Assembly: GCA_029288895.1 (NCBI GenBank)
Contig: JARIGK010000004.1
Coordinates: 175,866 to 239,865, forward strand
From: Candidatus Adlerbacteria bacterium
GTDB lineage: Bacteria > Patescibacteriota > Minisyncoccia > Phycocordibacterales > SBAW01
Reading direction: 5' to 3'
DNA: 64,000 bases
Shown: positions 6,626-23,059 of the stretch, one piece after another
How positions within the stretch are numbered: position 1 is the stretch's first letter
Layout: every line of letters begins with the position of its first letter
Notes under the pieces: model-generated
The model's database searches: none
What the model saw: only the letters and a program-made list of their open reading frames with translations
Told to the model about the DNA's origin: nothing
Translations under genes and position numbers: made by a program

Positions 6626-7654
6626 GTGCGGATGAAAATTGCACAGATTGCGCCCATTGTTGAGCGCGTCCCACCGAAGAAATACGGCGGCACCGAACGT
6701 GTAGTCCACGCCCTTGTAGAAGAGCTCGTGCGCCGCGGCCACGAGGTGACGCTGTTTGCCAGCGGCGACTCAGAAACATCCGCGACGCTGCATTCTGTCT
6801 ACCCGCGCGCCTTGCGTGATGCACGTATCGCCGATGTCTATGGTGCCAACTCGTGGACGCTCTTGAACATTGCGATGGCGTACGAGATGCAAGACGAGTT
6901 CGATATCATCCACGACCACACCATACCGTTGTCGCTTCCTACAGCCAACATTGCCACCACGCCTGTTGTTGCCACCATGCACGGGCCCTTTAGCGCCGCG
7001 AACCGCAGACTCTTCCAAACACTACGCGGCCCTGGCATTGTGAGCATTTCTGAATCACAAATATTTTCAGCGCCGGGCATCAACCACGTCGCAACCGTCT
7101 ACAACGGCTTGCCTATGGAACACTACCCGTTTGGCGAAACAGCAGGGGACTATTTGCTCTACGTCGGGCGTTTTTCGATGGAGAAGGGCGTACACTACGC
7201 CATCGAAGTTGCCGAGCAGCTCGACATGCCGCTTATCATTGCGGCAAAGCTCGACCCGGGCGACCAGGCGTATTTTCGAAATTATATCGAGCCTCGACTC
7301 TCGGACCGTGTGCGTTGGGTGGGCGAAGTCGACGAAGAGGAACGCAATAAATTAATGGCGGGTGCTAAATGCTTTTTGCACCCAGTGACGTGGCGTGAGC
7401 CGTTTGGCCTCACGTTGATAGAGGCGATGGCGTGCGGCTGCCCGGTTGTAGCATTTAACCGCGGCTCCATACCAGAAATTGTGCAGACAGGGGTGACGGG
7501 CTTTGTCGTCGAAGATACCGACTCGATGATCGATGCGGTGAGCGCCATCGGCGACATCAGCCGCGCCGCGTGCCGCGAACATGCGCTCTCAAAATTCAAT
7601 GTCAAAAATATGGCCGATGCGTACGAAGCGGTGTACCAAAAGATGGTGCCGTAA
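6626..7654 (+). CDS. Glycosyltransferase, family 4 (GT-B, retaining)
   Basis: 342 aa; N-terminal acceptor domain and a C-terminal EX7E-type motif (EPFGLTLIEAMACGCPVVAF). Confidence 0.8.
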   Translation: MRMKIAQIAPIVERVPPKKYGGTERVVHALVEELVRRGHEVTLFASGDSETSATLHSVYPRALRDARIADVYGANSWTLLNIAMAYEMQDEFDIIHDHTIPLSLPTANIATTPVVATMHGPFSAANRRLFQTLRGPGIVSISESQIFSAPGINHVATVYNGLPMEHYPFGETAGDYLLYVGRFSMEKGVHYAIEVAEQLDMPLIIAAKLDPGDQAYFRNYIEPRLSDRVRWVGEVDEEERNKLMAGAKCFLHPVTWREPFGLTLIEAMACGCPVVAFNRGSIPEIVQTGVTGFVVEDTDSMIDAVSAIGDISRAACREHALSKFNVKNMADAYEAVYQKMVP

Positions 7655-7709: not shown

Positions 7710-8306
7710 ATGTACATGAATTGGCATGTTGCGCTCGCGGCCGTGGCTGCCATCATCAGTCTCTCTTCGCTTATCCCATATGTGCGCGACATTGTGCGCG
7801 GCACTACGCGTCCAAATACAATCACGTGGGGCTTATGGTTTTTTATTCAGGTGATAGCCATCGCTGCCCAGGTCCATGAAGGCGCTTCGTGGTCAATCGT
7901 GTTCGTCATCGTGGACGGAATAACTATTCTTGTGGTGCTTGGTTTCTCTATCGCAGGATATGGATATCGAGAGTGGAATATATTTGATGCATGCTGCGGT
8001 GTGTTGGGAGTTGTCGCAATTGTTGCGTGGCAAACGACAGGGGATGCAATACTCGCACTCATCTTTTCGATACTTGCCGATGGCCTTGCGGCTCTTCCGA
8101 CATTGCGCAAAGCATATACGGATGCGTGGTCAGAACATCCTTGGGGTTGGGCGCTGACTACTCTTGCGGCTACGCTAGGGTTAGCTTCCACCGCTCGCTA
8201 CAATCCAGCAAATATACTTTTCCCAGGCTATCTCATTGCAATTAATTTCCTGACCTTTGTATTCTCATTTCTTGGTAGAAAGGTTCAACCCAAACCGACA
8301 ATGTAA
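7710..8306 (+). CDS. Multi-TM membrane protein, paralog 1 of a 3-member family
   Basis: Shares IPYVRDIVRGTTRP...TW, FD..CGVL..VA...W and LPTLRKAY motifs with 15920..16516 and 16525..17151; two internal half-repeats. Confidence 0.55.
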   Translation: MYMNWHVALAAVAAIISLSSLIPYVRDIVRGTTRPNTITWGLWFFIQVIAIAAQVHEGASWSIVFVIVDGITILVVLGFSIAGYGYREWNIFDACCGVLGVVAIVAWQTTGDAILALIFSILADGLAALPTLRKAYTDAWSEHPWGWALTTLAATLGLASTARYNPANILFPGYLIAINFLTFVFSFLGRKVQPKPTM

Positions 8307-8378
8307 TCCCCACAGTGTGTTTGGGAGGGGAGAAGTCGTGTAATACTTACGAGTGAAGCATTTATTTTTGCACTCACT

Positions 8379-9017
8379 ATGGTAAATCAACAACTTCTCG
8401 ACTATATAAAACAGCAATTGGCCGCCGGTGTTCAGAAGAACGACCTTATGAAAGCGTTGGCCGCGGGCGGATGGAATGCGATTGACGTCGGTGAAGCGTT
8501 TGCGGCGCTTACTCCCGCTCCAGCGACTCCTCCTTCAGCCATGCCTGTGCAACCGGCTTCGACTCCGGCTCCGCAACCTGTCCAACCTGCAGCGCCTGCG
8601 CAACCAATGGCGCCGCACACATCTCCTATCGTGCCGCCAGCAGTCACTATTACGCCAAACCCAGTCTCGACACCGATGACGCCAGCTGCGCCTATGGCGC
8701 CCATGGCACCTACATCGCCGCAAGTGTCTGCTGCTGCGATGGTTGCATCACAACCTGCGGCAAAAAGTTCAAACGCAGGACTCATCGTGTTGATCATCAT
8801 TTTACTTTTGATCTTGGCCGCAGGCGCTGCTGTCATCTTTGTCCCATCCTTAAACAACGCACTGCTCAACATGCTTGTGCCGCCAGTTGCACAGACCAAC
8901 GATACGTCTATGCAGCAGCCGCAACCGGCACCTGCTTCAACAGATACCACTCAAGTAACGGCGACTGCAACGACCACGCCGACTGTTTCTGGTACCGCCT
9001 CCACTACAGTCCACTAG
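8379..9017 (+). CDS. Hypothetical Pro/Ala/Thr-rich membrane-anchored protein
   Basis: Small N-terminal domain, long PAPATPPS low-complexity linker, one TM helix (LIVLIIILLLILAAGAAVIFV) and a Thr-rich tail. Confidence 0.5.
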   Translation: MVNQQLLDYIKQQLAAGVQKNDLMKALAAGGWNAIDVGEAFAALTPAPATPPSAMPVQPASTPAPQPVQPAAPAQPMAPHTSPIVPPAVTITPNPVSTPMTPAAPMAPMAPTSPQVSAAAMVASQPAAKSSNAGLIVLIIILLLILAAGAAVIFVPSLNNALLNMLVPPVAQTNDTSMQQPQPAPASTDTTQVTATATTTPTVSGTASTTVH

Positions 9018-9045
9018 GTGTTTGACTTTTATTTGGATTTGTTAG

Positions 9046-10335
9046 ATGAATAACCCCATGCGTAAAGGGGGATACCTGCCACCGTCAGTCTCGCGCTGGA
9101 AAGACCCGTTTTTGTTGTGCGCCACGATTGTGGGGGCCTATTGGGCATTCTCGCGCTTGGCGATTTCGGACACCGTATTGGCTATGTGCATCGTTATTGT
9201 GTCCATTGCGGTGATGGGTGTGCTTGAAGCGTTCCGAACGCACGTGCCCGCACATACGCACTCGCTCAAACAATCAATGTCGCATGCGCTCGTCACATGG
9301 GCGGGAACACTCGCAGGGCTTGGTTTTGTATTGTTTTTGTGGGGAACACTCACGACGTACTCAAGCTCGTACTACCAACCCTTTTTTCAAGTATTGCCAT
9401 TCTTCCTCGCGGCGTCGATTGTTCTAAGTTTCTTCTACGCTATTGTTGCGTCAAAAGTGCTCGGGCTGTATACGCACGGCGACTATCAACTGGGGCAGTT
9501 GGTGCTTGGGCGCGAAGTTAACTGGAAAGGTGTGCGCGACGCATTACTTGTGTGGGTTATCCGCGGATTTTTCTTGCCGATAAATTTTTGTGAATTGGTT
9601 AACACAATCGATGTCTTCCGCGGCCATGGCCTCTTTTTCTTGCAAGGCCCGTGGATGTCTGTCGAATATTACGTGCTCTTAATTGTCTACGGTTTTATCA
9701 TTGCAGCCGTCACGCCTGGCTATGTGTTTGGTGCGCGCCTCTTTGGCACGCATACACGCGACGTGAGCCACTCGTGGTTTGCGTGGGTTGTGACTCTCAT
9801 CTGCTATGCGCCGCTTGAGCTCGCCGTGTTTAAAGGATGGTTTAACTACAACCCCACGGCAGCGACTCCCGTATGGAACCAGCCGTGGGTAGTACATTTT
9901 GCCAACGCGCCAGTTGTGTTGGAAACCATAGGCGGGCTCCTCGTGTTAGTGTCGCTCGTGCACTTGTGGGGCGAAGCGCAGTTTGGCCTCCGCTCGTCCA
10001 ACATAAGCAACCGCGGCATCATTACGACGGGTGCGTATCGCTACACCAAGCACCCGGTGTACCTCACCAAATGTGTGGGATGGTTTTTAATCTGGCTGCC
10101 GTTTCTTTCAGGCGCTTCGTTTGTCGACAGCATGCGCCTGACATTCCTCTTCTTGTGCATCTGTGCGATATACGCGCTGCGCGCGCTGGCCGAAGAAGAA
10201 CTTTTGAGCGCGGACAAAGACTACGTGGCATATGCGCTGTGGATGGATGAACATGCGTGGACGAAAAAAATAGGGGAGATATTCCCCATCTTCCGCTACT
10301 CGTGGCGTCTGGTGCAGTGGGAAAAAGTGAGGTAA
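9046..10335 (+). CDS. Polytopic membrane protein with a C-terminal ICMT/phospholipid-methyltransferase-family domain
   Basis: C-terminal TTGAYRYTKHPVYLTKCVGWFLIW fits the G-x-Y-x3-RHP-x-Y motif of the ICMT/PEMT family; large N-terminal multi-TM extension. Confidence 0.6.
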   Translation: MNNPMRKGGYLPPSVSRWKDPFLLCATIVGAYWAFSRLAISDTVLAMCIVIVSIAVMGVLEAFRTHVPAHTHSLKQSMSHALVTWAGTLAGLGFVLFLWGTLTTYSSSYYQPFFQVLPFFLAASIVLSFFYAIVASKVLGLYTHGDYQLGQLVLGREVNWKGVRDALLVWVIRGFFLPINFCELVNTIDVFRGHGLFFLQGPWMSVEYYVLLIVYGFIIAAVTPGYVFGARLFGTHTRDVSHSWFAWVVTLICYAPLELAVFKGWFNYNPTAATPVWNQPWVVHFANAPVVLETIGGLLVLVSLVHLWGEAQFGLRSSNISNRGIITTGAYRYTKHPVYLTKCVGWFLIWLPFLSGASFVDSMRLTFLFLCICAIYALRALAEEELLSADKDYVAYALWMDEHAWTKKIGEIFPIFRYSWRLVQWEKVR

Positions 10336-10348
10336 GTTGTAGGGTATC

Positions 10349-10424
10349 GCCGTTGTAGCTCAGTTGGTAGAGCAACGCCATGGTAAGGCGTAGGTCGGCA
10401 GTTCGATCCTGCCCAACGGCTCCA
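10349..10424 (+). tRNA. tRNA-Thr (GGT), CCA encoded
   Basis: GCCGTTG/CAACGGC acceptor, anticodon loop ATGGTAA, T-arm GGCAGTTCGATCCTGCC, T-CCA end. Confidence 0.85.
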
Positions 10425-10447
10425 GCTTCCAGAGATGGGAAGTGTAC

Positions 10448-10523
10448 GCCAGCGTAGCTCAGTTGGTAGAGCAGCGGTATCGTAAACCGCAGGTCGTCGG
10501 TTCAATCCCGACCGCTGGCTCCA
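10448..10523 (+). tRNA. tRNA-Thr (CGT), CCA encoded
   Basis: GCCAGCG/CGCTGGC acceptor, anticodon loop ATCGTAA, T-arm GTCGGTTCAATCCCGAC. Confidence 0.85.
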
Positions 10524-10530
10524 AAAAATA

Positions 10531-10556
10531 AAAAACCGCCTTATTCAGGCGGTGTA
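10531..10556. terminator. Rho-independent terminator for the minus-strand nudix gene; hairpin also follows the plus-strand tRNA-Thr pair (no T-run on that side)
   Basis: ACCGCC-ttattca-GGCGGT hairpin with A-run upstream (T-run on the minus strand); the stop codon of the minus-strand nudix gene lies in the loop. Confidence 0.6.
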
Positions 10557-11003
10557 TCCCAAAAACTCTCTATACAATTTGCGGTGGAGGCCGAAGAAAT
10601 CTGGCATTGCATCGACAAGGTCGATAGGGAATTCCTGAGTTTCAAAAAACTCATCTTCATCTTTACCTGGAAATTTTTTTCCAGATAGGTCCCGAAGACG
10701 GCAATACGGAAGACGTGTTTTGTAGAAATACTGAAGATGAGGATTCGCTCCGTATACGGTATACGGTTTACGGACCTCTTCGATGCATACTTCGGGGTCG
10801 CCTCGGTTGGCGAGCCAAAAGCCACCTTCTTCCCACAGTGCGCGAATCACGGCGTCGATTTCGGACTCGCCTTCGTGCATCCCTTCGCCGATAAATTTCC
10901 ACGCATTCTCCGACTTCTTCAGATCTTTGATGAGCAACAGCGTGTCGGGCTGGCGGCTATAGATGGCGAGCATCATAACCGGGAGCCCAAAGTTTGTGTG
11001 CAT
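10545..11003 (-). CDS. NUDIX hydrolase
   Basis: Nudix box GEGMHEGESEIDAVIRALWEEGG (G-x5-E-x7-R[AE]-x2-EE-x-G), 152 aa. Confidence 0.7.
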   Translation of the reverse strand: MHTNFGLPVMMLAIYSRQPDTLLLIKDLKKSENAWKFIGEGMHEGESEIDAVIRALWEEGGFWLANRGDPEVCIEEVRKPYTVYGANPHLQYFYKTRLPYCRLRDLSGKKFPGKDEDEFFETQEFPIDLVDAMPDFFGLHRKLYREFLGYTA

Positions 11004-11076
11004 GTTTCACCTCTGTGCGCAAAATAGCAGAGAAGCATAGAAAGTCAATACTGTGATACAGTAGTGGCACGAATCT

Positions 11077-11958
11077 ATGGCAGAGAAAGAAGAAATACAA
11101 AAACGGATTGCAGAAATAGAGGCAGCAATGAATGCTGCTGATTTTTGGGCCGTGCCTGCTAAAGCACAGGCGATGATTAAAGAGTTGCAGGATTTGAAAG
11201 CCGAAGCAGAAGGCGGCGGCAAGTACGACCGCGGCAACGCAATCATGATGATCGTCGCAGGTGCCGGCGGAGATGACGCAGAAGACTTTGCGCAGATGCT
11301 ACTCGAGATGTATCGCAAATTTAGCGAGAAAAAGGGCTGGGGTATGCGCGTGTTGCACAGCCACCCCAACGACCACGGCGGCTATCGCAACATTACTGTG
11401 GAAGTCGAAGGTAAGAGCGCCTACGGCACGCTCAAAAACGAGTACGGGGTGCATCGCTTGGTGCGTATCTCGCCATTTAATGCCTCGCAAAAACGGCAAA
11501 CATCATTTGTCTTGGTAGAAGTGCTGCCGGTTGTAGAAAAGGTCGGCGATTTTGAAGTGCCCGAACAAGAATTAGAAATTACCTTTGCCCGCTCGGGCGG
11601 CCCCGGCGGCCAAAACGTCAACAAACGCGAGACAGCAGTGCGCGTAGTGCATACACCGACGGGCATTTCGGCGCACGCCGATGGCGAGCGTTCGCAAAAT
11701 GCCAACCGCGAGAAAGCGCTTGCGATCGTGAAGGCAAAACTATTTCATCGACTGGAGACAGAGCGTAAAGAAACTATTGCAGAACTTTCAACCAATGCAC
11801 AAAAGATAGAATGGGGAAGCCAGATCCGCTCATATGTGCTGCATCCGTACAAACTTGTAAAAGATCACCGCACGGGTGTTGAGGTAGGGAACGCCGAAGG
11901 TGTGCTCGACGGCAACCTGGAACCCTTCATTGCCGCGTTTGACACAACCCAGAAATAG
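11077..11958 (+). CDS. prfB: Peptide chain release factor 2 (N-terminally short form)
   Basis: SPF tripeptide (RISPFNAS), GGQ motif ([11 protein letters not shown]) and conserved C-terminus. Only 293 aa, with just 73 bp upstream to the next gene, so domain 1 is genuinely shortened; no in-frame TGA frameshift site. Confidence 0.85.
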
Positions 11959-12018
11959 TCCTATTGTTTTATTTACGCACGACCCCTCGTGCAATAACCA
12001 CACTTCCGGGAGGAAGTA

Positions 12019-12336
12019 ATGAAGATCTTTTCACTCGTCGCCGCAGTTGCGGCAATTTCTGTACCAGCATTCGCCCAAAGCCATCGTTTTGATCCTGGTG
12101 GCAAAGTGGTCGACGCCCGGGCGGCAATGCGTTGTGGAGTGCCGCCGGATTTTGGCGAAGAACTCCACGGCAGCTTCTTCAGCTGTGGAGGAAGGCTTAT
12201 TTTTGTCCGCAATGCGTATTTGCTGGGCATCATAAAAGCCGATGATATTTTCCTCTGCGAAGTCGGCATTAATGCTGCTGGCGGGGAAGTCGCTGAGAAC
12301 TGCAGGCGGGAACGTACCGTCGCCACAAAAAAGTGA
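12019..12336 (+). CDS. Hypothetical small secreted protein
   Basis: Strong Shine-Dalgarno GGGAGGAAGTAATG, signal-peptide-like N-terminus MKIFSLVAAVAAISVPAFAQ, terminator hairpin right after the stop. Competes with an antisense ORF 11973..12359. Confidence 0.4.
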   Translation: MKIFSLVAAVAAISVPAFAQSHRFDPGGKVVDARAAMRCGVPPDFGEELHGSFFSCGGRLIFVRNAYLLGIIKADDIFLCEVGINAAGGEVAENCRRERTVATKK

Positions 12337-12345
12337 CCAATGAGA

Positions 12346-12377
12346 GGCCGCCCCAGCATAGGGCGGTCTTTTTCTTT
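12346..12377 (+). terminator. Rho-independent terminator
   Basis: GGCCGCCC-cagcata-GGGCGGTC followed by TTTTTCTTT. Confidence 0.5.
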
Positions 12378-12443
12378 ATGCAGGTATTAGATGAAGAACC
12401 CAGTTGCCGGGAGGGCAGAGAAAGGTACAATAGGAAAGTTGTT

Positions 12444-13124
12444 ATGATCTATTTCGACAGAGTCAGCAAGGTCTACGCTGACAACTCAATCGCATTGGAA
12501 GATGTTAGCTTCTCCGTTGAACCGGGCGAATTCATCTCCATCGTCGGCCACTCGGGTGCCGGCAAAACCACCCTCGTCAAAATGCTCTTAGCAGAAGAGA
12601 AGCCAACAGACGGCTCCGTCTTTTTTGAATCTATTAATGTGCACGAGGTGCCTTTGTCGCGCATCAACCACCTGCGCCGCAAGATAGGCACCGTCTTCCA
12701 AGACTTCCGCCTTCTTCCGCAAAAGACCGCGTACGAAAATATTGCATTCGCGATGGAGGCAGCAGGCCGCCACGAAGAGGAGATCCATTCCGATGTGCCG
12801 CACGTGCTCGACCTGGTTGACCTCACAGATAAAGCAAATAATTTTCCTGACGAACTTTCAGGCGGCGAACAGCAGCGTGTGGCTATCGCGCGCGCTATTG
12901 TCAATCAGCCTGACGTCATTATTGCCGACGAGCCCACAGGTAACTTGGACCCGGTCAACACCTTTGAAGTGGTGCAGATCCTCAAGAAAATCAATGACCT
13001 AGGCACTACTATTATCCTCACCACGCACAACAAAGGCGTTATCGACAGCTTAAAGAAGCGCGTTATTACTATGGACCGCGGCCGCATCGTCCGCGACGAC
13101 CGAGAAGGGAAATATATATTGTAA
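12444..13124 (+). CDS. ftsE: Cell division ATP-binding protein FtsE
   Basis: Walker A GHSGAGKTT, ABC signature LSGGEQQRVAIARA, Walker B IIADEPTGNLD; ~226 aa from the first ATG. Confidence 0.9.
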   Translation: MIYFDRVSKVYADNSIALEDVSFSVEPGEFISIVGHSGAGKTTLVKMLLAEEKPTDGSVFFESINVHEVPLSRINHLRRKIGTVFQDFRLLPQKTAYENIAFAMEAAGRHEEEIHSDVPHVLDLVDLTDKANNFPDELSGGEQQRVAIARAIVNQPDVIIADEPTGNLDPVNTFEVVQILKKINDLGTTIILTTHNKGVIDSLKKRVITMDRGRIVRDDREGKYIL

Positions 13125-13133
13125 AATTTGCCT

Positions 13134-14066
13134 ATGAACTGGACTACCGTTAAACGAATATTCCGCTCCGGCCTCCTCGATTTTTGGAGAAACGGGTTCG
13201 TCTCACTCGCATCAATTTTGGTGATGACGGTAACGCTGTTTGTCGTAGGTATGACGCTCTTTGCGGGCGTTATTTTGCAAACGGCATTGAATGATTTGCG
13301 CGATAAAGCGGACGTGAGCGTGTACTTCACGACCAATGCACCCGAAGACAAAATATTGGAATTGCAGAAGTCGGTAAATGCGCTGCCGCAAGTTGAAAGT
13401 ACGCAGTATGTGTCGGCCGACGACGCGCTCGCGAACTTCCGCGAACGCCACCAGAACGACCAGCTTACCCTGCAAGCACTCCAAGAACTTGGCGCAAACC
13501 CGCTCGGCGCTGTGCTTAACATCAAAGCAAAAGATATTTCGCAGTACGACGCTATCGCGCAGTTTTTGGAACAGCAGCAGGCACTGTCCACGGGCAACGC
13601 AAGTATCATCGACAAGATTAACTACTTCGACGCGCAGCACCGCCAGGCGCTTGAGCGTCTGCAGAGCATCACCGACTCGGCAGGGACGCTTGGCCTCGTG
13701 ATTATCCTTATCTTGGTTGCGGTCACGATTGCTATTTCATTTAACACGCTGCGTTTGGCAATTTACACCTCGCGCGAAGAGATCCAGGTGATGCGCTTGG
13801 TGGGGGCGGGCTCGTTCTATATCCGTGCACCGTTTATGGTGGAGGGCGTGCTGTACGGCCTCATTTCGGGGCTCGTGACATTGATCCTCTTCTACCCGCT
13901 GACATACTGGTTGGGGAGCGCAACGGCCGACTTCTTTGGCGGCATCAACGTCTTCTCGTACTACGTATCGCACTTCCTTCAATTCTTCGCTATTATAGTC
14001 GGGACGGGCGTTGTGCTTGGGGCGGCAGCCAGCTACCTGGCGGTGCGCCGATATTTGAAGATTTAA
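13134..14066 (+). CDS. ftsX: Cell division permease-like protein FtsX
   Basis: Follows ftsE by 9 nt; 4-TM FtsX topology with a large extracytoplasmic loop; first ATG at 13134 (the ORF track starts at TTG 13128). Confidence 0.85.
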   Translation: MNWTTVKRIFRSGLLDFWRNGFVSLASILVMTVTLFVVGMTLFAGVILQTALNDLRDKADVSVYFTTNAPEDKILELQKSVNALPQVESTQYVSADDALANFRERHQNDQLTLQALQELGANPLGAVLNIKAKDISQYDAIAQFLEQQQALSTGNASIIDKINYFDAQHRQALERLQSITDSAGTLGLVIILILVAVTIAISFNTLRLAIYTSREEIQVMRLVGAGSFYIRAPFMVEGVLYGLISGLVTLILFYPLTYWLGSATADFFGGINVFSYYVSHFLQFFAIIVGTGVVLGAAASYLAVRRYLKI

Positions 14067-14074
14067 ATTGCTAG

Positions 14075-15739
14075 ATGAAATTTCCTTTTTCTAAATCCGA
14101 AAGCTCGAGCGAGAATCCAAAATATATTTTCGTCGTCGGCGGTGTGATGTCGGGCGTTGGCAAAGGCGTCGCGTCATCATCCATCGGCAAAATTTTGAAA
14201 GCAAAGGGGTTTAAGGTCACCGCGATTAAAATCGACCCCTACATCAACGTGGACGCTGGCACCATGAACCCGACAGAACACGGCGAAGTGTTCGTGTTGG
14301 ACGATGGCTACGAGACCGACCAGGATATGGGTAACTACGAGCGCTTTTTGGATGAGTCGCTGCCGCAGATTAACTACATGACCACCGGCCGCGTGTACCA
14401 GGAAATAATCCGCCGCGAGCGCAATTTGGAGTATGGTGGCAAAAACGTGGAAGTGGTACCGGACGTGCCACTCGAAGTAATTCGCCGCATCAAGCGCGCG
14501 CAAGAAGAAGCGAAGGCAGACATTACGCTTGTGGAAGTGGGCGGCACGATAGGCGAGTACCAGAACATCATCTTCCTCGAAGCGGCGCGTATGCTCAAAC
14601 AAAAGCATCCAAAAGATGTGGCCGTCGTGATGGTGTCGTATGTACCCATTCCGGGCAACATCGGCGAGATGAAGACCAAGCCGACGCAGTATGCGGCGCG
14701 CTCGCTGAACTCTGTCGGCCTCCAGGCGGATGTGATTTTGGCACGCGCACAAGTAGCGCTCGACGAAAAGCGCAAAGAAAAAATCGCTATCTTCTGCAAC
14801 ATCCCGACCGAGCATGTGATTTCGGCACCCGATGTCCAGAGTATTTATGATGTGCCAGGTAATTACGAAGAAGACGGCCTAGGCGACATTTTGACGGACG
14901 TCCTTTCCTTGCCAAAGAAAAAGACAGACCTTTCGGAGTGGAATACGTTTGTACAAAAATCAAAGAAGGCAACACAAGAAGTTGAGATAGCAGTTGTGGG
15001 CAAATACTTCTCATCGGGAGAGTTCGTGCTTTCGGACGTATATATTTCGGTGCTCGAGGCAATCAAGACTGCGGCGTACCACCTCGACCTCAAACCAAAA
15101 ATTACGTACCTGTCGTCGCAGGATTTTGAATCAGGAAAAATGGAATTGTCCGAGCTCGATCGCTTTGGCGGCATCTTGGTGCCGGGCGGCTTTGGCTCAA
15201 CAGGCGTCGAGGGCAAAATAAAAGTGATCCAGTACGCACGTGAGAAGAAGATCCCATATTTTGGCATTTGCTATGGCATGCAGTTGGCGGTGATTGAGTA
15301 TGCGCGCCATGTTGCAGGTATGAAAGATGCACACACACGGGAAATTTCCAAAGACACCGCGCACCCAGTGATCGACATTATGGAATCGCAGAAAGATATT
15401 GTTGAGCAGGGGAACTTTGGCGGCACGATGCGGTTGGGTACGTACCCATGCGTCATCAGAGAGGGGACCGTGGCACACACAGTCTTTGGCACAACAGAAA
15501 TTTCCGAGCGCCACCGCCACCGCTACGAAGTAAACACCGACTATATCGAAGAGATAGAAAAAGCGGGCATGGTCTTTTCGGGCAAGTCACCAAACGGCGT
15601 ACTCATGGAAATCGTTGAGCTTCCGAAAGATGTGCACCCGTTCTTTATGGGTATCCAGTCGCACCCCGAATTCCTCTCGCGCCCACTTACTCCGCACCCG
15701 ATCTTCTCGGCGTTTATAAAGGCCGCAAGCAAAAAATAA
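14075..15739 (+). CDS. pyrG: CTP synthase
   Basis: 554 aa; N-terminal synthetase domain (KYIFVVGGVMSGVGKG) and C-terminal GATase with catalytic Cys (GICYGMQ). Confidence 0.95.
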   Translation: MKFPFSKSESSSENPKYIFVVGGVMSGVGKGVASSSIGKILKAKGFKVTAIKIDPYINVDAGTMNPTEHGEVFVLDDGYETDQDMGNYERFLDESLPQINYMTTGRVYQEIIRRERNLEYGGKNVEVVPDVPLEVIRRIKRAQEEAKADITLVEVGGTIGEYQNIIFLEAARMLKQKHPKDVAVVMVSYVPIPGNIGEMKTKPTQYAARSLNSVGLQADVILARAQVALDEKRKEKIAIFCNIPTEHVISAPDVQSIYDVPGNYEEDGLGDILTDVLSLPKKKTDLSEWNTFVQKSKKATQEVEIAVVGKYFSSGEFVLSDVYISVLEAIKTAAYHLDLKPKITYLSSQDFESGKMELSELDRFGGILVPGGFGSTGVEGKIKVIQYAREKKIPYFGICYGMQLAVIEYARHVAGMKDAHTREISKDTAHPVIDIMESQKDIVEQGNFGGTMRLGTYPCVIREGTVAHTVFGTTEISERHRHRYEVNTDYIEEIEKAGMVFSGKSPNGVLMEIVELPKDVHPFFMGIQSHPEFLSRPLTPHPIFSAFIKAASKK

Positions 15740-15782
15740 AACATTGAGCTTCGGGCATTTTTGGTGTACTTTGGAGCAGTAT

Positions 15783-15853
15783 TGCCAGATCGTCTAATGG
15801 TAGGACAACGGACTCTGAATCCGTTTATCTTGGTTCGAATCCAAGTCTGGCAG
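15783..15853 (+). tRNA. tRNA-Gln (CTG)
   Basis: U1-A72 acceptor TGCCAGA/TCTGGCA, anticodon stem ACGGA/TCCGT with loop CTCTGAA, T-arm CTTGGTTCGAATCCAAG. Confidence 0.8.
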
Positions 15854-15919
15854 CAGCTTAGTTTAGTATCGGACGACCAAGAGGGGTCAGGAGCTAACAA
15901 CTAATGTACTATTCCTAGT

Positions 15920-16516
15920 ATGGAATATAAATTTGTACTTGGCACTCTTGCGGCGCTTTTTGCCATAGGTAGCGCATATCTCTATATTCGGGATATATTC
16001 CGCGGTAATACAAAACCTCATACCTACACATGGATTATATGGTCCATTGTTACCGCCATTGGGTTTCTTGGACAATGGTATACCGGTGGAGGAGCAGGCT
16101 CATGGGCCACAGGGGTGACAGCTTGTTACTGTTTCATCATTCTGTTTCTTTGCTTCAAATATGGAACAAGCGATATTACGAAGTTTGATCTACTGTGTTT
16201 GGTTCTGGCAATTACCTCTATTGTCCCGTGGCTCTTCTCCCACAATATTTTGTGGTCTGTAATTTTAGCAACAATAACTGATCTACTTGGCTTTCTTCCT
16301 ACAATACGAAAAACATGGCGCGCTCCGCGTAGTGAATCACTCGGGTCACTCTGGTTCGACGTTTTTAAACACGGGCTTTCTGTTGCGTCACTTCAAACGT
16401 ATTCACTTACTACATGGTTGTATCCAGCCGCTATTATCATTGCAAAGATGATGCAGGTGGTCGAAATATCGTATTTACGGTTTCTACGAAAGGAACATAA
16501 GGCGGCTCAAGTATAA
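15920..16516 (+). CDS. Multi-TM membrane protein, paralog 2
   Basis: YLYIRDIFRGNTKPHTYTW..., FDLLCLVLAITSIVPW, LPTIRKTWRAP motifs shared with 7710..8306; AT-richer than its neighbours. Confidence 0.55.
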   Translation: MEYKFVLGTLAALFAIGSAYLYIRDIFRGNTKPHTYTWIIWSIVTAIGFLGQWYTGGGAGSWATGVTACYCFIILFLCFKYGTSDITKFDLLCLVLAITSIVPWLFSHNILWSVILATITDLLGFLPTIRKTWRAPRSESLGSLWFDVFKHGLSVASLQTYSLTTWLYPAAIIIAKMMQVVEISYLRFLRKEHKAAQV

Positions 16517-16524
16517 TTATCTAT

Positions 16525-17151
16525 ATGAGCGAAGTATTTTTGGGTTTACCGATTGCACACTGGCTCGTCCTTCTTTCCATCGGCATCAGTTCAACAGGAG
16601 GCATAACCTACCTCCTCAACATGTTTCGAGGAAAATCCAAACCCAACTTGGTTTCGTGGGGTCTGTGGGGCTTGGCCCCACTTATTGCAACAGGAGCGGC
16701 TATTTCGGCTCATGCCGATTTGTGGGGCACTGCACGTGTTTTTATTTCTGGTTTTGTACCGTTCGTTATTTTTATGTTCGGTCTGTTTTTGAAGCAAAGT
16801 TACTGGAAACTCACTCGCTTCGACTTCTTCTGTGGAGTACTTTCCGTAATTGCTCTAATTGCATGGCTTATTGCTCATGCTCCCGTTGCGGCAATTTTGT
16901 TCGCGATAGCTGCAGACTTGTTTGCCTCAGTGCCGACTCTAGTAAAAGGATGGCAAAGCCCTCATACCGAAACGGCAACCGTTTTTCTTACAAGCCTCAT
17001 ATCATCTCTCATCACAATCCCTGCTATCCCAGTTTGGAATCTTGAAAACACCGCATTTCAAGCGTATCTGATTATTGTAAATCTGGCTTTGTTTGGAGTC
17101 ATAACTTTAGGTAAACTCCTAAAGCCAACACAAAGTGTTTCGACTCAATAG
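16525..17151 (+). CDS. Multi-TM membrane protein, paralog 3 (tandem with paralog 2)
   Basis: LNMFRGKSKPNLVSWGLW, FDFFCGVLSVIALIAW, VPTLVKGWQSPHTE motifs. Confidence 0.55.
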   Translation: MSEVFLGLPIAHWLVLLSIGISSTGGITYLLNMFRGKSKPNLVSWGLWGLAPLIATGAAISAHADLWGTARVFISGFVPFVIFMFGLFLKQSYWKLTRFDFFCGVLSVIALIAWLIAHAPVAAILFAIAADLFASVPTLVKGWQSPHTETATVFLTSLISSLITIPAIPVWNLENTAFQAYLIIVNLALFGVITLGKLLKPTQSVSTQ

Positions 17152-17239
17152 TTCCGAACCCATCTAACCATTGCAGCCAGTAAAATTTTTGCAGTGAAAT
17201 AAGGATATTTTGGATAGGATGATTGGATGATCAGAACTG
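17150..17239 (+). repeat. Intergenic repeat element A, copy 1 (supplies the start codon of the downstream gene)
   Basis: AGTTCCGAACCCATCTAACCATTGCAGCCAGTAAAATTTTTGCAGTGAAATAAGGATATTTTGGATAGGATGATTGGATGATCAGAACTG; near-identical copies at 18314, 19177 and a partial copy at 17738. Confidence 0.75.
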
Positions 17240-17685
17240 CTATACTTCCTGTAATGGAAAAGAGAATACCGGCACTTACGCCAGAGTTAAAAATCACTGA
17301 CTTTAAGAAGAGTCTAAAATTTTATACTACACTCGCTGGTTTTGATATTGAGTACGAACGTCCTGAAGACGAATTCGCAATGCTCAGCAAAGGAGATGCA
17401 TGGATTATGATTGAATCCATTAGCGATAAAAGTCGCATAATGAAAGCAGGGGCTCTCGAGTATCCTTTTGGGCGCGGCATGCATTTTCAGATACAGGTTG
17501 AAGATGTGCAGTCGCTCTACGATACTTTTAAAAGCAATTCTCATCCTATCTTCTCCGAAATGGAAGATAAGTGGTATCGAACAGGCGAGACCGAGGGAGG
17601 GAATAGGCAATTTTGGGTACAAGACCCTGACGGCTACATGCTGCGCTTCTATCAGGACTTAGGTTCTAGGCCTTTTCAGAAGTAG
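17227..17685 (+). CDS. VOC-family protein (glyoxalase / bleomycin-resistance-like)
   Basis: 152 aa with beta-alpha-beta-beta-beta-like modules (KITDFKKSLKFYTTLAGFDI..., WVQDPDGYMLRF); start codon lies inside repeat A copy 1. Confidence 0.6.
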   Translation: MIRTAILPVMEKRIPALTPELKITDFKKSLKFYTTLAGFDIEYERPEDEFAMLSKGDAWIMIESISDKSRIMKAGALEYPFGRGMHFQIQVEDVQSLYDTFKSNSHPIFSEMEDKWYRTGETEGGNRQFWVQDPDGYMLRFYQDLGSRPFQK

Positions 17686-17691
17686 CAGTCC

Positions 17692-17765
17692 AGTTCCGAA
17701 CGACACTAAAATAATCAGTATGGATTTGTATCAAATTGATTCCGAACCCATCTAACCATTGCAGC
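17692..17765 (+). repeat. Repeat element A, truncated copy 2: an isolated AGTTCCGAAC half, then ...TTCCGAACCCATCTAACCATTGCAGC fused to the next gene start
   Basis: AGTTCCGAAC at 17692-17701 directly after the VOC stop; the first 26 bp of element A at 17740-17765 are followed immediately by ATG 17767. Confidence 0.6.
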
Positions 17766-17766
17766 A

Positions 17767-18288
17767 ATGAAAAAGATTTATATAACGGGAGTTTCAGGGA
17801 CAGGAAAAACTACCATTGCACATGAATTAGAAAAGAGGGGCTACCTTGTTGTGAGTATTGATGAGGTGTCAGGGCTGTGCTCATGGACGCATCAAGAGAC
17901 AGGAGAAAAACATGGCGGCAAAGATACGCCCCTCACTAAAGAATTTGTTGATGCCCATGATTGGATTGTAGATATCGAACACTTGAATAAACTTCTCGAT
18001 AAAGATGTCGAAGTGGCGTTTGTACTAGGTATGGCTGGTAATCAGAATGAGTTCTTGCCATCATTCGATAAAATCTTATTGCTAGAATGTAACCCCGAAA
18101 CCTTCAGTGCGAGAATTGACGCACGAACAGACAATGATTTTGGTAAAGACCCACAAATCAAAGCTCAAATTCTCAACCGCTATAAAACTTACGGGGAAGA
18201 GATGCGTTCGCGAGGTGCTATTGTTGTAAATACCGATAGGCCTATTGATGCGGTGGTCAAAGATGTTATTGCTCAAGCCAATGCATAA
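17767..18288 (+). CDS. P-loop NTPase, small kinase-like (adenylate/shikimate-kinase fold)
   Basis: Walker A ITGVSGTGKTTIAHEL at the extreme N-terminus; 173 aa. Confidence 0.6.
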   Translation: MKKIYITGVSGTGKTTIAHELEKRGYLVVSIDEVSGLCSWTHQETGEKHGGKDTPLTKEFVDAHDWIVDIEHLNKLLDKDVEVAFVLGMAGNQNEFLPSFDKILLLECNPETFSARIDARTDNDFGKDPQIKAQILNRYKTYGEEMRSRGAIVVNTDRPIDAVVKDVIAQANA

Positions 18289-18313
18289 AAACCTTTGCTT
18301 CTTGCCAGTACGG

Positions 18314-18403
18314 AGTTCTGAACTTATCTAACTCGGGCAGCCAGTAAAATTTTTGCAGTGAAATAAGGATATTTTGGATAGGATGATTGGATTATCAGAA
18401 CTG
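18314..18403 (+). repeat. Repeat element A, copy 3 (internal ATG mutated to ATT)
   Basis: AGTTCTGAACTTATCTAACTCGGGCAGCCAGTAAAATTTTTGCAGTGAAATAAGGATATTTTGGATAGGATGATTGGATTATCAGAACTG. Confidence 0.75.
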
Positions 18404-18474
18404 ATTGATATTAGTTAGTCAGTCTTGTATAACTCCCTACAGCCATAAGTTCCATTTTTTCGAGAGGATGACAG

Positions 18475-19086
18475 ATGAACGATCTTGTTAAAGGTCTCGT
18501 TCGCAAGGAAAATATGTTGCAAGAGCTTCTTTCGTTGCCTCGCGACCAACTGGGCAAGGCGATCCAGAGAATCCAGGCCGAGGCTGAAGCGCAGAGTGCC
18601 TTCAAGTTGGGACAGCTCGTTCGAACTTGCAATTCTCCGGGCATCTCACTCGTGGGTGGCCTCAGCGAACTTCCGCACGACCACAATGACCCAAAGCAGC
18701 ATTCCAATACGCGTGTCGTGGGCTGGAATTCTTTTGGTGAAATTGAAGTCGCCACTTCTTACGGGAGTAACCCACATTGTTGCAAGTGGACGCATAGTGA
18801 AAGCAAGATGATTCCTTGCGAGGACGCCGACTGGGCTACTCAAAGTCTTCGCAAACGCGACGAAAAAGTCTCCTACGTATGGGAGCTTCGCGGATTTTGG
18901 GAGGCTGACAATCATGTCGGTGAAGTGGTGCCGGCGATTCTTGTTGTTCCTCACATTAAGGAAGGAGATTGGATCGTACGCTATGCCAAGCCGCATAAGC
19001 GACACGACTGGATCATCCGCGTCATCAACGAGAAACAGATGCTCCCGTCTCTCCCCGACAACGAGTACCCCGCCTCCGACGAATAG
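18475..19086 (+). CDS. Hypothetical protein
   Basis: 203-aa ORF downstream of repeat A copy 3; no recognisable motif. Confidence 0.5.
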   Translation: MNDLVKGLVRKENMLQELLSLPRDQLGKAIQRIQAEAEAQSAFKLGQLVRTCNSPGISLVGGLSELPHDHNDPKQHSNTRVVGWNSFGEIEVATSYGSNPHCCKWTHSESKMIPCEDADWATQSLRKRDEKVSYVWELRGFWEADNHVGEVVPAILVVPHIKEGDWIVRYAKPHKRHDWIIRVINEKQMLPSLPDNEYPASDE

Positions 19087-19265: not shown

Positions 19266-19401
19266 TAGAACGATTTAATCTATTAAATGCAGAAATTCTT
19301 TTTGTTTGGTAGCCTGTCAGAGGAGTAATCTTGCTCCAGCTCCGAGCCCTATAGCGGAATGCTGGGCTCATATTGCAGTGGAATACTGCAAGGAGAGAAC
19401 A

Positions 19402-19980
19402 ATGAAAGTCTCAACCGAAGCGCAGATTGCGCAGTTCATTCAAGAGTATCCCATCCTCGAGAAGCCAATTGAGATATTGCGCAGGAGAGCGAGCGGCGGG
19501 AATAATGTCGCCTTGCGTATTCACATCGCGGTCAAACGCATGGATACGCTGATGCCTTACTTTGTGGGGAACCCGACCAAACCACGTGCGTGGATTCCAG
19601 GTGAGGGTATCAACAAGGGTCTCGACGGCACTGAAGAAGCGCGAGCATATGTCTATTGGCCAATGGCGCACGAGCCGCTCCACTTTCTTTTTGAGTGGTC
19701 TCCAGGAGATGCCCATAAACTCGGGAACCTGCTGCTCGGTATCAAACCCGAAGAAATCGGGCACGTGGTCATCGAGACCTGCTATGTCTGGCATGAGCGC
19801 AGGAAGGATATCACATGGGAAAGTATTGTTGGGCGCACTCCCATGCGGGCGATAGAGGCTACGTTCGTAGTCTTGTTACCGCCTAAGAGCGGGACGGTGG
19901 CGGAGCTGTTCGAAAAAGCTAAACGGGAACATCCTGAACTGAAAACACCCAAGGAGCACGTTGAGTTTCTGAATCGTTAG
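19402..19980 (+). CDS. Hypothetical protein
   Basis: Shine-Dalgarno AAGGAGAG 6 nt before ATG 19402; 192 aa; strong terminator follows. Confidence 0.55.
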   Translation: MKVSTEAQIAQFIQEYPILEKPIEILRRRASGGNNVALRIHIAVKRMDTLMPYFVGNPTKPRAWIPGEGINKGLDGTEEARAYVYWPMAHEPLHFLFEWSPGDAHKLGNLLLGIKPEEIGHVVIETCYVWHERRKDITWESIVGRTPMRAIEATFVVLLPPKSGTVAELFEKAKREHPELKTPKEHVEFLNR

Positions 19981-20071: not shown

Positions 20072-20587
20072 ATGAGAGCCAAAACTGTACGTGTGAATGA
20101 CAGAATGCAGAAAGGGTACAGCTACACCCTGAGCGAGCCCGTGGGCAAAAATTTTGACCCGCGTTTCCAGCCCGACCTTACGCCAAAACAAATGCTCGCA
20201 CTTGGTGTGTTTGGCGGCGTCTACATGCGCGACTGCAGAAAAGAATTTCCAAAGGATTGGTTTGCGAAAGCCAAGTTTCAAACGAAAGGAGTGTATGAAC
20301 AAGATCCAACAATTAATTTTTTTAAGGTGAAGGCGAGTCAGTCGCTTAGCGAATGGAAGAGAAAAGGGTGGATATATAAAGACGACCCGCGCGGATGGTT
20401 CCAATGGTACTGCCGCTACTATATGGGGCGCCGCGGGGAGGATGACGAGCGGCAGATCAAACGCTGGGTTGCTATCCGTCGCCACATTGCGCAAATAGTA
20501 AAGAACTGCCGCAAGGGAGATTTTTCATGCCACTCAAAACAGCGGCAAGCTGTTCTTCACTGGGCGTACGACAGCAGGACGTTATAA
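20072..20587 (+). CDS. Hypothetical protein (Trp/Arg-rich)
   Basis: 171-aa ORF after element B copy 2; no recognisable motif. Confidence 0.5.
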   Translation: MRAKTVRVNDRMQKGYSYTLSEPVGKNFDPRFQPDLTPKQMLALGVFGGVYMRDCRKEFPKDWFAKAKFQTKGVYEQDPTINFFKVKASQSLSEWKRKGWIYKDDPRGWFQWYCRYYMGRRGEDDERQIKRWVAIRRHIAQIVKNCRKGDFSCHSKQRQAVLHWAYDSRTL

Positions 20588-21411: not shown

Positions 21412-21436
21412 AGCCCTAATGGTATAGTTGGAGTAT

Positions 21437-23056
21437 ATGAGTATGTTGAGCAGGGTATTTGGCCGTGTCCGCGCGTGGGCATGGTACTCCAAAGTTGCTG
21501 CGGCAGTAGCGGTTGTTGCTGTTGTGGGCGTGGGCGTGCATGCACTGACGCGCACCAATGACGCTACTACTACAACGCCACAAGTGTCGCACGTGCGCGA
21601 AGCATCCGTTGCGAGCCTTTCGTCGCAGAGCGTGGGGCCATTGCCTGTCGTGGGCAACGTGACATCGCTCGATCATGCAACACTGCTTGCGCAAACGTCT
21701 GGTCCTGTGACGAGCCTTTCGAAATCGCTTGGTTCGTACGTCGCCGCGGGCGGCGTGATAGGCGAGCTTGAAAACAGCGCCCAGCGCGCAGCCGTACTCC
21801 AAGCACAAGGTGCGTACGAAGCAGCGCAAGCGTCATTTGCAAACACCAGCGGGACGTCGGCGCAAAACTCTGGCATCGGTGCAAATCAGGCAGTGCAAAA
21901 TGTGGCAAACACACAAGCAAGTGCAAACACTGCGATGCAAAGCCTCTACTCGGCGCTCGACGACGCGGTGCATACCAAAGCCGACCTTTTGTTTACTAAC
22001 CCGCGCACTAATGCAACGCTTTTGCTGACGACAACCGACAGCCAGCTTGCTATTACCTTGCAGAACGAACGTGTCGCACTTGAGCACACGCTTTCGAATG
22101 CAAACAGCAAAGCAAATGCATCAACGCGCGCGGACACTGACGCTGACATCACAACGATGGCCGCGTATGGGCAGGCGACGGTAACCTTCCTTAACCATTT
22201 GGTCGAGGCGGTAAACAAAGCGCTGCCTACAGAAACTGTCACAGCGGCGCAAATTTCCGGGTACCAAACATCCATTGCTGCGGCACGCACCGAAGTAGTG
22301 AGTGCGCTCTCGAGCCTTTCGTCGGCAAAAACAGCGTATGATGCCGCGGTGGCAAGCGCTGCAACGGCAAGCAACACTGCGGGCACTGGCACAGCAAACA
22401 GCATTAGCGCAGCCGGGGCGCAGGTGACGCAGGCACAAGGCGCACTTGATGCTGCACGCTCGGCGCTTGAAAAAACAATCATCCGCTCGCCGATTTCCGG
22501 CACCATTGTAAGTTTGCCCATTACGCGCGGCGGCTTTGTCACTGCGGGCTCGCAAGTGGCAGTCGTCTCAAACCCAGGCGCTTTGGAGGTTGATGCGTAT
22601 GTAACGCCAAGCGATGCGAAGACCATTGTCGTCGGTGGCGTGGCAACCATAGGGCAGGGCACCCGCGGCGTTATCGTTTCTATTGCACCAGCGCTCGACC
22701 CAACCATCGGCAAAATTTTGGTAAAGATTGGTATTCCGGGCAGCCAAGCAGCGCTCACCGATGGTGACACCGTCTCTGTCACACTCGCACGCTCGACGCC
22801 GGCACAGGTCAAACAACAAACAAAGACGCCAGAAGGTACGGTGCTTATTCCGATAGTTGCAGCAAAAATTACGCCTCAAGGCCCCGTCGTCTTCCAAGTG
22901 ACTGCGTCATCGACTTTGCACAGCATCCCTGTGACGCTCGGCACTATTTTGGGCGAACAAGTTACCATCACAAGCGGTCTTACCCCTGACATGAGTATCG
23001 TTACCGATGCGCGCGGGCTCTCCGATGGCGACACGGTCGTCGTCGACACTCAATAA
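21437..23056 (+). CDS. Efflux periplasmic adaptor (HlyD/membrane fusion protein family), long form
   Basis: N-terminal TM helix, very long Ala/Thr/Gln-rich helical region, C-terminal beta-barrel motifs (IRSPISGTIVSL, VVSNPGALEVDAYV); 3 nt upstream of the RND gene. Confidence 0.8.
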   Translation: MSMLSRVFGRVRAWAWYSKVAAAVAVVAVVGVGVHALTRTNDATTTTPQVSHVREASVASLSSQSVGPLPVVGNVTSLDHATLLAQTSGPVTSLSKSLGSYVAAGGVIGELENSAQRAAVLQAQGAYEAAQASFANTSGTSAQNSGIGANQAVQNVANTQASANTAMQSLYSALDDAVHTKADLLFTNPRTNATLLLTTTDSQLAITLQNERVALEHTLSNANSKANASTRADTDADITTMAAYGQATVTFLNHLVEAVNKALPTETVTAAQISGYQTSIAAARTEVVSALSSLSSAKTAYDAAVASAATASNTAGTGTANSISAAGAQVTQAQGALDAARSALEKTIIRSPISGTIVSLPITRGGFVTAGSQVAVVSNPGALEVDAYVTPSDAKTIVVGGVATIGQGTRGVIVSIAPALDPTIGKILVKIGIPGSQAALTDGDTVSVTLARSTPAQVKQQTKTPEGTVLIPIVAAKITPQGPVVFQVTASSTLHSIPVTLGTILGEQVTITSGLTPDMSIVTDARGLSDGDTVVVDTQ

Positions 23057-23059
23057 CCT

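Follow-up and report, generated by a model that had tools for sequence, protein, structure and literature searches.

Three related genes in a 64,000-nucleotide (nt) stretch of contig JARIGK010000004.1 from a Candidatus Adlerbacteria bacterium (hereafter the window) encode proteins that are predicted to fold into seven transmembrane (TM) helices and that very probably belong to the structural superfamily of the SWEET, PQ-loop and KDEL receptor (KDELR) proteins. The proteins, which we name A, B and C, appear to be old members of a large bacterial family of inner-membrane proteins of ~200 amino acids (aa), and we hold with moderate confidence that they serve as carriers of small solutes. The three open reading frames (ORFs) are:

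7710..8306, + strand: paralogue A, 198 aa, predicted 7-TM protein of the SWEET/PQ-loop fold (ORF)
15920..16516, + strand: paralogue B, 198 aa, first gene of a tandem pair (ORF; BLASTP to A and C)
16525..17151, + strand: paralogue C, 208 aa, starting 8 nt past the stop codon of B (ORF)

These ORFs lie exactly where an earlier reading of this DNA from its letters alone (the sequence-only reading) had placed three related genes, all on the + strand. The similarity between the proteins is significant and spans their whole length at 23–29% identity (BLASTP; A/B, E 5e-21, 28% identity; A/C, E 4e-25, 29%; B/C, E 9e-18, 23%). Scanning the 64-kb window with a hidden Markov model (HMM) of the family returned exactly three copies, namely A, B and C, with B matched at E 1.8e-68. 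The same reading had described one motif in each half of the protein, and translation confirmed both of them in all three paralogues:

7776..7817, + strand: motif 1 of A, PYVRDIVRGTTRPN, cytoplasmic end of TM1 and TM1-TM2 loop
8097..8135, + strand: motif 2 of A, PTLRKAYTDAWSE, cytoplasmic end of TM5 and TM5-TM6 loop
15980..16021, + strand: motif 1 of B, LYIRDIFRGNTKPH
16298..16336, + strand: motif 2 of B, PTIRKTWRAPRSE
16606..16647, + strand: motif 1 of C, TYLLNMFRGKSKPN
16933..16971, + strand: motif 2 of C, PTLVKGWQSPHTE

The fold was predicted with AlphaFold2. The model of C, made from a 38-sequence alignment, reached a predicted local distance difference test score (pLDDT) of 93.2 and a predicted template-modelling score (pTM) of 0.87, and shows seven helices (residues 10-34, 42-61, 66-86, 98-115, 120-144, 151-167 and 173-199). 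An independent model of A from a 120-sequence alignment (pLDDT 94.9, pTM 0.89) has the same seven-helix plan; in this model DSSP breaks TM1 at residue 20, just ahead of P23. The seven helices of these two confident models bear out the 3+1+3 TM architecture proposed from the sequence. The best 12 Foldseek matches were KDELR, cystinosin and SWEET13, with template-modelling scores of 0.51–0.60 and a probability of ~1. Structure-comparison values, two per entry, were 11.8 and 12.1 for Arabidopsis cystinosin, 12.1 and 11.2 for KDEL receptor 2, 10.7 and 11.0 for SWEET2b, 10.2 and 10.9 for SWEET13, and 9.8 and 10.0 for human cystinosin. With these SWEET, cystinosin and KDELR matches, the SWEET/PQ-loop-like fold that had been suggested from raw sequence proved essentially right. 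SWEET, cystinosin/PQ-loop and KDELR proteins form one recognised superfamily, Pfam clan CL0141, whose hallmark is a duplicated three-helix bundle with a linker helix between the copies (PMC7176098, PMC3281891).

The topology was predicted from the distribution of lysine and arginine residues in 120 members of the family. Their mean number per member is 2.1 in loop 1-2, 2.0 in loop 3-4 and 1.5 in the C-terminus, and 0.0–0.4 in the remaining loops. This distribution predicts an N-out/C-in orientation with the motif loops in the cytoplasm, as in SWEETs and cystinosin. Motif 1 would thus cover the cytoplasmic end of TM1 with loop 1-2, and motif 2 the cytoplasmic end of TM5 with loop 5-6. An internal duplication had also been claimed. 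When the N half was aligned with the C half by hhalign (120-sequence alignment), the score was 19.2 (P 0.0024), compared with at most 13.6 in 30 column shuffles, and the halves fell into register as xY-I-R-D on PT-I-R-K. The repeat signal is weak, and non-significant with the shallower 38-sequence alignment (E 0.16), but it exceeds the shuffle controls and has the right register. Taken together, prediction shows a seven-helix 3+1+3 fold in which two three-helix bundles are joined by a linker helix, in a putative N-out/C-in orientation.

To place the motifs on this fold we compared them with the PQ motif, a Pro-Gln pair that occurs on the opening helix of either 3-TM repeat (TM1 and TM5); its Pro acts as the hinge in a binder-clip motion, and its Gln supports the loop that follows (PMC4309421, PMC9385667). 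Judged by helix boundaries, these positions correspond in the family to P-T on TM5 and (P)-Y on TM1. The Pro-containing motif ending in a basic residue that was noticed in the sequence is therefore found on TM1 and TM5, at the published PQ position (PMC4309421, PMC9385667). The residues at this position differ from Pro-Gln. TM5 has P in 98% and T in 95% of members and TM1 has P in 43% and Y in 99%, so that the hinge Pro persists in repeat 2 alone. The Pro of the PY in motif 1 is present in A and missing from B and C.

Conservation was calculated from an alignment of 120 diverse homologues (A3; this alignment and a further one, A4, were too diverse for locus scanning), and residue numbers are those of C. 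The motifs are the best-conserved parts of the protein. In half 1 these are Y29 (99%), G36 (88%), P40 (99%), W45 (83%) and W48 (96%), and in half 2 they are D131 (88%), P137 (98%), T138 (95%), K141 (97%), P146 (97%) and E149 (97%); the P146 position is Ala in A. The linker helix TM4 carries D100 (97%), C103 (75%) and W114 (91%). Q59 on TM2 and N186 on TM7, each conserved at 62%, lie inside helices together with D131. A Trp-rich helix had been described behind each motif. This holds for half 1 (W45 and W48) but only loosely for half 2, which has aromatic residues at 143 and 154 and no conserved Trp. The two conserved acidic residues of the helices were located in all paralogues:

16915..16917, + strand: Asp131 of C, mid-TM5 acidic residue, candidate substrate or proton site (88% of the 120 members; inside model helix 120-144)
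8079-8081, + strand: D124 of A, equivalent of C Asp131
16280-16282, + strand: D121 of B, equivalent of C Asp131
16822..16824, + strand: Asp100 of C, cytoplasmic start of linker helix TM4 (97% conserved)
7986-7988, + strand: D93 of A, equivalent of C Asp100
16187-16189, + strand: D90 of B, equivalent of C Asp100

The size of the family was assessed by an exhaustive HMMER search of 1.84 billion representatives clustered at 50% identity. This yielded 4,648 proteins at E≤1e-3, of which 2,725 also passed E≤1e-10; nearly all are 190–210 aa long, and we take a family this large (4,648 representatives at E≤1e-3) to be under selection. A word-indexed search with C gave 303 homologues, none of which has a Pfam domain. 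The few that are named carry the label ‘hypothetical’ or ‘uncharacterised membrane protein’, and some of these come from metagenome-assembled genomes (MAGs) of Parcubacteria or Moraniibacteriota. In species-representative genomes the C-type subfamily is found mainly in Patescibacteria/Candidate Phyla Radiation (CPR) bacteria (Saccharibacteria, Paceibacterota, Harrison-, Nomura-, Lloyd-, Morani- and Peribacteria), and also in Pyrinomonadaceae, Cyanobacteria (among them Vacuolonema iberomarrocanum LEGE 07170, which is in culture), Myxococcota, Bdellovibrionota and Leucobacter. Viral contigs and PHROGs contained no family match. The plasmid collection gave one truncated ‘hypothetical protein’ from a Rhodococcus plasmid and one weaker, partial match from a Lactiplantibacillus plasmid.

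The sequence-only reading had suggested that the family is being amplified in this genome, and this we do not find, as each copy has relatives of 40–62% identity in other organisms that are closer than its in-genome siblings. A is 62% identical to protein P0121, followed by relatives at ~41%, and has orthologues of 74% identity in three soil metagenome loci (L036-L038; L numbers denote loci carrying related genes). The closest relative of B is P0122 (50%), and that of C in the same set is P0123 (45%), with up to 75% identity to database homologues. The in-genome siblings rank only 47th–89th of 119. Having closer relatives elsewhere than in their own genome, A, B and C represent three old subfamilies rather than a recent amplification. 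C-type and B-like copies also occur 1.7 kb apart in a Saccharibacteria MAG (L025), and a high-GC soil contig holds a recent tandem duplicate of the family gene (L071, 1669-3325). We further observed a family gene split into two ORFs by a frameshift or as a pseudogene in a Nomurabacteria MAG (L018, 2349-3008), and a C-type copy with a C-terminal extension of ~100 aa resembling two more TM segments (L017, 7980-8897). SUKH and DUF1214 fusion partners in longer members were isolated cases and uninformative.

A, B and C returned only noise from Pfam, NCBIfam and PHROGs, and neither the 120 members nor the family consensus and its halves had a consistent Pfam match. PF04193 (PQ-loop) did not match A, B, C or the consensus, at full length or as halves, at E≤10, and was absent among the matches of the 120 members at E≤1. 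Neither PF03083 (MtN3_slv) nor PF00810 (ER_lumen_recept) matched A, B, C, the 120 members or the consensus. By sequence the proteins are not members of the PQ-loop or MtN3 Pfam families and form a separate family without a database model within a known fold superfamily. As a SemiSWEET comparator we used a seed sequence that is 100% identical to a Bradyrhizobium diazoefficiens entry annotated with PF04193 and PF03083; the profile built from it comprises 120 Bradyrhizobium-type sequences and is very shallow (effective number of sequences, Neff, 1.2). Against this profile the C half aligned with PT-I-R-K on PQ-F-I-K at a score of 15.8, compared with a shuffle maximum of 14.3, and the N half aligned in register at a non-significant score of 9.9. 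The similarity to genuine SemiSWEETs is suggestive only, and homology with the clan would rest mainly on the fold.

As carriers of small solutes, the proteins would act as monomers by alternating access. The two bundles would rock around hinges at TM1 ((P)-Y, that is Y29 and, where present, P28) and at TM5 (P-T-x-x-K, with P137/T138). The near-invariant cytoplasmic loops (G36-x-T-K-P40, K141, P146-x-x-E149 and D100) could form an inner gate, and D131 on TM5, Q59 on TM2 and N186 on TM7 a central binding or proton-coupling site. The buried Asp would make a neutral sugar less likely than a substrate that is cationic or coupled to protons; basic amino acids, nucleosides and vitamins are examples. 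With three diverged paralogues, three specificities are probable, which would fit an auxotrophic, scavenging organism of the CPR type.

Several points weigh against a carrier. As no PQ-loop, MtN3 or KDELR model detects the family, its homology rests on the fold and a marginal profile signal, and sequences from the PDB, cystinosin included, gave nothing relevant when compared with three- and 120-sequence profiles. The superfamily includes non-transporters (KDEL receptor, MPDU1), so that the fold is no proof of transport. The equivalences of the gate and binding-site residues were drawn from helix boundaries only, and a substrate is indicated by neither a ligand nor a regulon nor a riboswitch (Rfam; window and 11 loci). 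Finally, the most invariant residues gather on the cytoplasmic side rather than in the membrane core, which would also fit a partner-binding or enzymatic surface.

This last observation suits the main alternative, which we consider unlikely, in which proteins of the same fold carry no solute and instead assist envelope biogenesis by handling lipids or lipid-linked sugars (in the manner of MPDU1 or a scramblase), or serve as a receptor or scaffold with a partner-binding cytoplasmic face. The PQ-loop family does include trafficking receptors and lipid flippases besides transporters (PMC9385667, PMC3281891), and A sits behind a GT4 glycosyltransferase and ahead of two membrane proteins, one of which has a borderline ICMT-like domain:

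6626-7654: GT4 glycosyltransferase upstream of A (Pfam)
8379-9017: 3' of A, 212-aa protein rich in Pro, Ala and Thr, with a single TM segment and without a Pfam match
9046-10335: 429-aa multi-TM protein whose C-terminus meets the ICMT model exactly at the cut-off (24.0 bits)

The GT4 gene really precedes A, as had been pointed out from the sequence, but GT4 adjoins no family gene in 91 related loci, including the three with the 74% orthologues of A, and we rejected a conserved GT4 link (0/91). The other two genes are likewise next to a family gene in none of the 91 loci. Clustering of neighbours over all loci revealed no general partner and no recurrent envelope-synthesis or sugar-metabolism genes. 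Besides the absence of these neighbours and of an envelope-synthesis partner, the conserved polar residues inside TM5, TM2 and TM7, which suit a solute site, argue against a role without transport. The family gene usually stands alone, without a conserved operon partner, as is typical of transporters. Promoter and terminator scans were at or below background.

Two apparent neighbours were discarded. An initial ‘HAD hydrolase in 10 loci’ was artefactual and traced back to alternative-frame ORFs that overlap the family gene, and true HAD neighbours occur in ~3 loci; the unannotated ~200-aa neighbours in L004 are not family members by the family HMM. Such alternative-frame ORFs (L009-L031; in the window 16656-17045, in the +2 frame over C) cluster by BLASTP between genomes, and this false signal is a caution for neighbour clustering based on ORFs.

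The neighbour data also bear on the substrate. That the family consists of bacterial full-length SWEETs working as neutral-sugar uniporters is improbable. SWEETs are among the structural matches, but cystinosin and KDELR match equally well or better, the MtN3_slv and PQ-loop Pfam models match neither the consensus nor any of the 120 members, and no sugar-metabolism neighbours recur. A conserved buried Asp, here in 88% of members, is not a known feature of SWEET sugar sites. The sugar substrate raised as a possibility by the sequence-only reading found nothing in its support, the GT4 neighbour being absent in the 91 related loci, and we regard sugar specifically as a very improbable substrate.

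Small P-loop kinases of the AAA_17/AAA_18 type are encoded near family genes in the window and in L001, L044, L033-L035, L039 and L041. The gene in the window (17767-18288) is two genes after C, and its AAA_18 small kinase-like product shows weak similarity to dNK and thymidylate kinase. L033, L034, L035, L039 and L041, from Paceibacterota, Adlerbacteria and metagenome contigs, share a conserved block of SecD, SecF, a small AAA_17/AAA_18 P-loop kinase and the family gene, which reaches from ~4–6 kb upstream of the family gene up to its start. The kinase abuts the family gene in the first four of these loci, and in L041 the order is the same with the kinase ~1.2 kb away. This adjacency is a possible transporter–kinase pairing. 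The kinases recur only weakly, as do nucleotide-metabolism genes of the NUDIX, HD and HAD families, which occur in L001, L002, L011 and L012, and VOC/bleomycin-resistance-like proteins, which occur in ~5 loci including the window.

These kinases would suit a substrate version of the carrier reading, that of a PnuC-like facilitator through which a nucleoside or vitamin diffuses in and is trapped by a cytoplasmic P-loop kinase encoded nearby. CPR bacteria are auxotrophs, which favours it, as do the kinases of the window, L001, L044 and the SecD-SecF loci and the NUDIX, HD and HAD genes. We nevertheless think it rather unlikely. The contexts come down to just 3–4 independent ones in ~88 loci, of genes that are common in small genomes, so that chance is plausible; Rfam found no riboswitch in the window or in 11 loci; and the fold is unlike PnuC, with a template-modelling score of 0.22 in the Foldseek comparison, no match to the PnuC sequence model and a helix connectivity other than that of PnuC.

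The tandem pair had been described as opening a tRNA-Gln island. The features concerned are:

15783..15854, + strand: tRNA-Gln(CTG), 65 bp ahead of B, genomic context outside the protein family (ARAGORN, Rfam)
15600..18600: lower-GC segment with B, C and the VOC/bleomycin-resistance-like and AAA_18 kinase-like genes (GC 0.41–0.45, window mean 0.52)
17227-17685: VOC/bleomycin-resistance-like gene

The tRNA-Gln next to the pair and the dip in GC are real, with B, C, the VOC gene and the kinase at 0.42–0.45 compared with 0.52 for the window. We found, however, no att-like repeat, that is, no second copy of the 24-mer at the 3' end of the tRNA with up to 3 mismatches allowed, and no integrase domain in the Pfam-scanned ORFs across 17–30 kb, where the nameable ones are HlyD/AcrB efflux, sortase and ClpP. 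The ORFs at 18475-19086, 19306-19980 and 20072-20587 have no Pfam or PHROG match. The order PyrG ... tRNA-Gln(CTG) ... C-type gene also occurs in two Saccharibacteria MAGs (L012 and L024), and the PrfB-FtsE-FtsX-PyrG block at 11077-15739 of the window is syntenic with L012 318-4692 at 46–74% protein identity, the clearest pointer in the sequence to where the window belongs taxonomically. The place of C is thus inherited, and a classical integrative island is not supported. Further downstream we noted genes for an HlyD-type membrane-fusion protein and, behind it, a full-length AcrB/RND pump (21428-26161; E 2e-179 for the pump), and after these a sortase (26225-26824) and ClpP (27381-27962).

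In 13 of 76 loci (window 15783-15920, L007, L009, L010, L017, L020, L022, L026, L027, L048, L050, L061 and L062) the 500 bp upstream of the family gene contain a tRNA, where the tRNA density in the flanks of the same loci predicts 1.75 (binomial P ~2e-8, for loci that are not phylogenetically independent). These tRNAs have six identities (Gln, Trp, Ser, Asp, Val and Thr), and 11 of the 13 are co-oriented with the family gene. Co-transcription with tRNAs and repeated insertion beside them are candidate explanations. In six loci (L009 6820-7680, L018 220-942, L045, L048, L049 and L050) an unannotated ORF family (‘...GGIAFTNSDPNLVRTFLRLLRECF...’) was seen just upstream of the unit of tRNA and family gene, often behind dnaX; it might be a homing-endonuclease-like gene.

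In a wider view, which we put forward tentatively and regard as possible though doubtful, the SWEET/PQ-loop/KDELR proteins would have in this family their principal full-length branch in bacteria, made up of fused 7-TM proteins, which has escaped notice because sequence models fail to detect it. Its hinge would be Pro-Thr/Tyr where others have Pro-Gln, and its conserved TM4 would be functional. The family would be especially expanded in CPR/Patescibacteria, where several paralogues per genome would take up cationic metabolites derived from the host (nucleosides, vitamins, basic amino acids), either coupled to protons or by facilitated transport; the tRNA adjacency would reflect constitutive co-transcription or repeated horizontal insertion.

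The findings are of use for annotation, for the evolution of SWEET and PQ-loop proteins and for CPR physiology. They support building a family model, which would give a fold-level annotation to thousands of ‘hypothetical proteins’. Bacterial SWEET/PQ-loop relatives are usually described as dimerising 3-TM half-transporters and the full 7-TM forms are treated as essentially eukaryotic; the family supplies a large number of fused 7-TM members from bacteria and bears on the origin of the eukaryotic forms. CPR/Patescibacteria depend on scavenged metabolites and few of their importers have been identified, and three diverged paralogues in one small genome make the family a concrete candidate. Our literature search returned no paper that ties the SWEET/PQ-loop/KDELR fold to CPR/Patescibacteria.

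Among known systems, the family can be compared with the PQ-loop/LCT proteins (cystinosin, PQLC2/Ypq; PF04193, TCDB 2.A.43). It shares with them the seven helices in a 3+1+3 arrangement, the N-out/C-in orientation and a conserved intramembrane Asp as in proton-coupled cystinosin (PMC9385667). In both, TM1 and TM5, the helices that open the two repeats, bear a cytoplasm-facing conserved Pro-x motif with a basic residue behind it. It differs in having no PF04193 match, in replacing the Gln by Thr in repeat 2 (95%) and by Tyr in repeat 1 (99%), in keeping the repeat-1 Pro in only 43% of members, in its strongly conserved TM4 (D 97%, W 91%), and in being bacterial and ~200 aa long without extra domains.

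From SWEET/SemiSWEET (PF03083; TCDB 2.A.123) the family differs by the lack of a PF03083 match and by its conserved buried Asp, and most bacterial relatives of that group are 3-TM half-transporters (PMC5742349), whereas the A/B/C family is a full 7-TM fusion. The sugar pocket of EcSemiSWEET is formed by Trp50 and Asn66 (PMC4309421); the sole candidate equivalent in the family is N186 on TM7 (62%), and TM3 has no conserved Asn in the 120 members. The KDEL receptor (PF00810) belongs to the eukaryotic secretory pathway, where it serves as a pH-dependent receptor for peptides, whereas the family is bacterial, without a sequence match and without an equivalent cellular context in bacteria. With PnuC (PF04973; TCDB 4.B.1) it has in common that it is bacterial and has a 3+1+3-type pore, and uptake followed by trapping through a kinase is a possible functional analogy.

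Full-length bacterial proteins of this kind have been described before in small numbers. A few 6-7-TM bacterial SWEETs were reported in 2017 (PMC5742349), and Saudek (2012) listed 24 prokaryotic 7-TM ‘PQ-loop’ proteins, for example Nostoc punctiforme B2JBF6, of which ‘nothing is known’ (PMC3281891). The latter, compared here by description only, are also full-length 7-TM and prokaryotic, and the A/B/C family too has cyanobacterial members (L028, L029); against those 24 proteins stand at least 4,648 clusters at 50% identity in the A/B/C family. What is new here is a large unannotated sequence family with a variant hinge motif, PT/Y in place of PQ, and a conserved linker helix.

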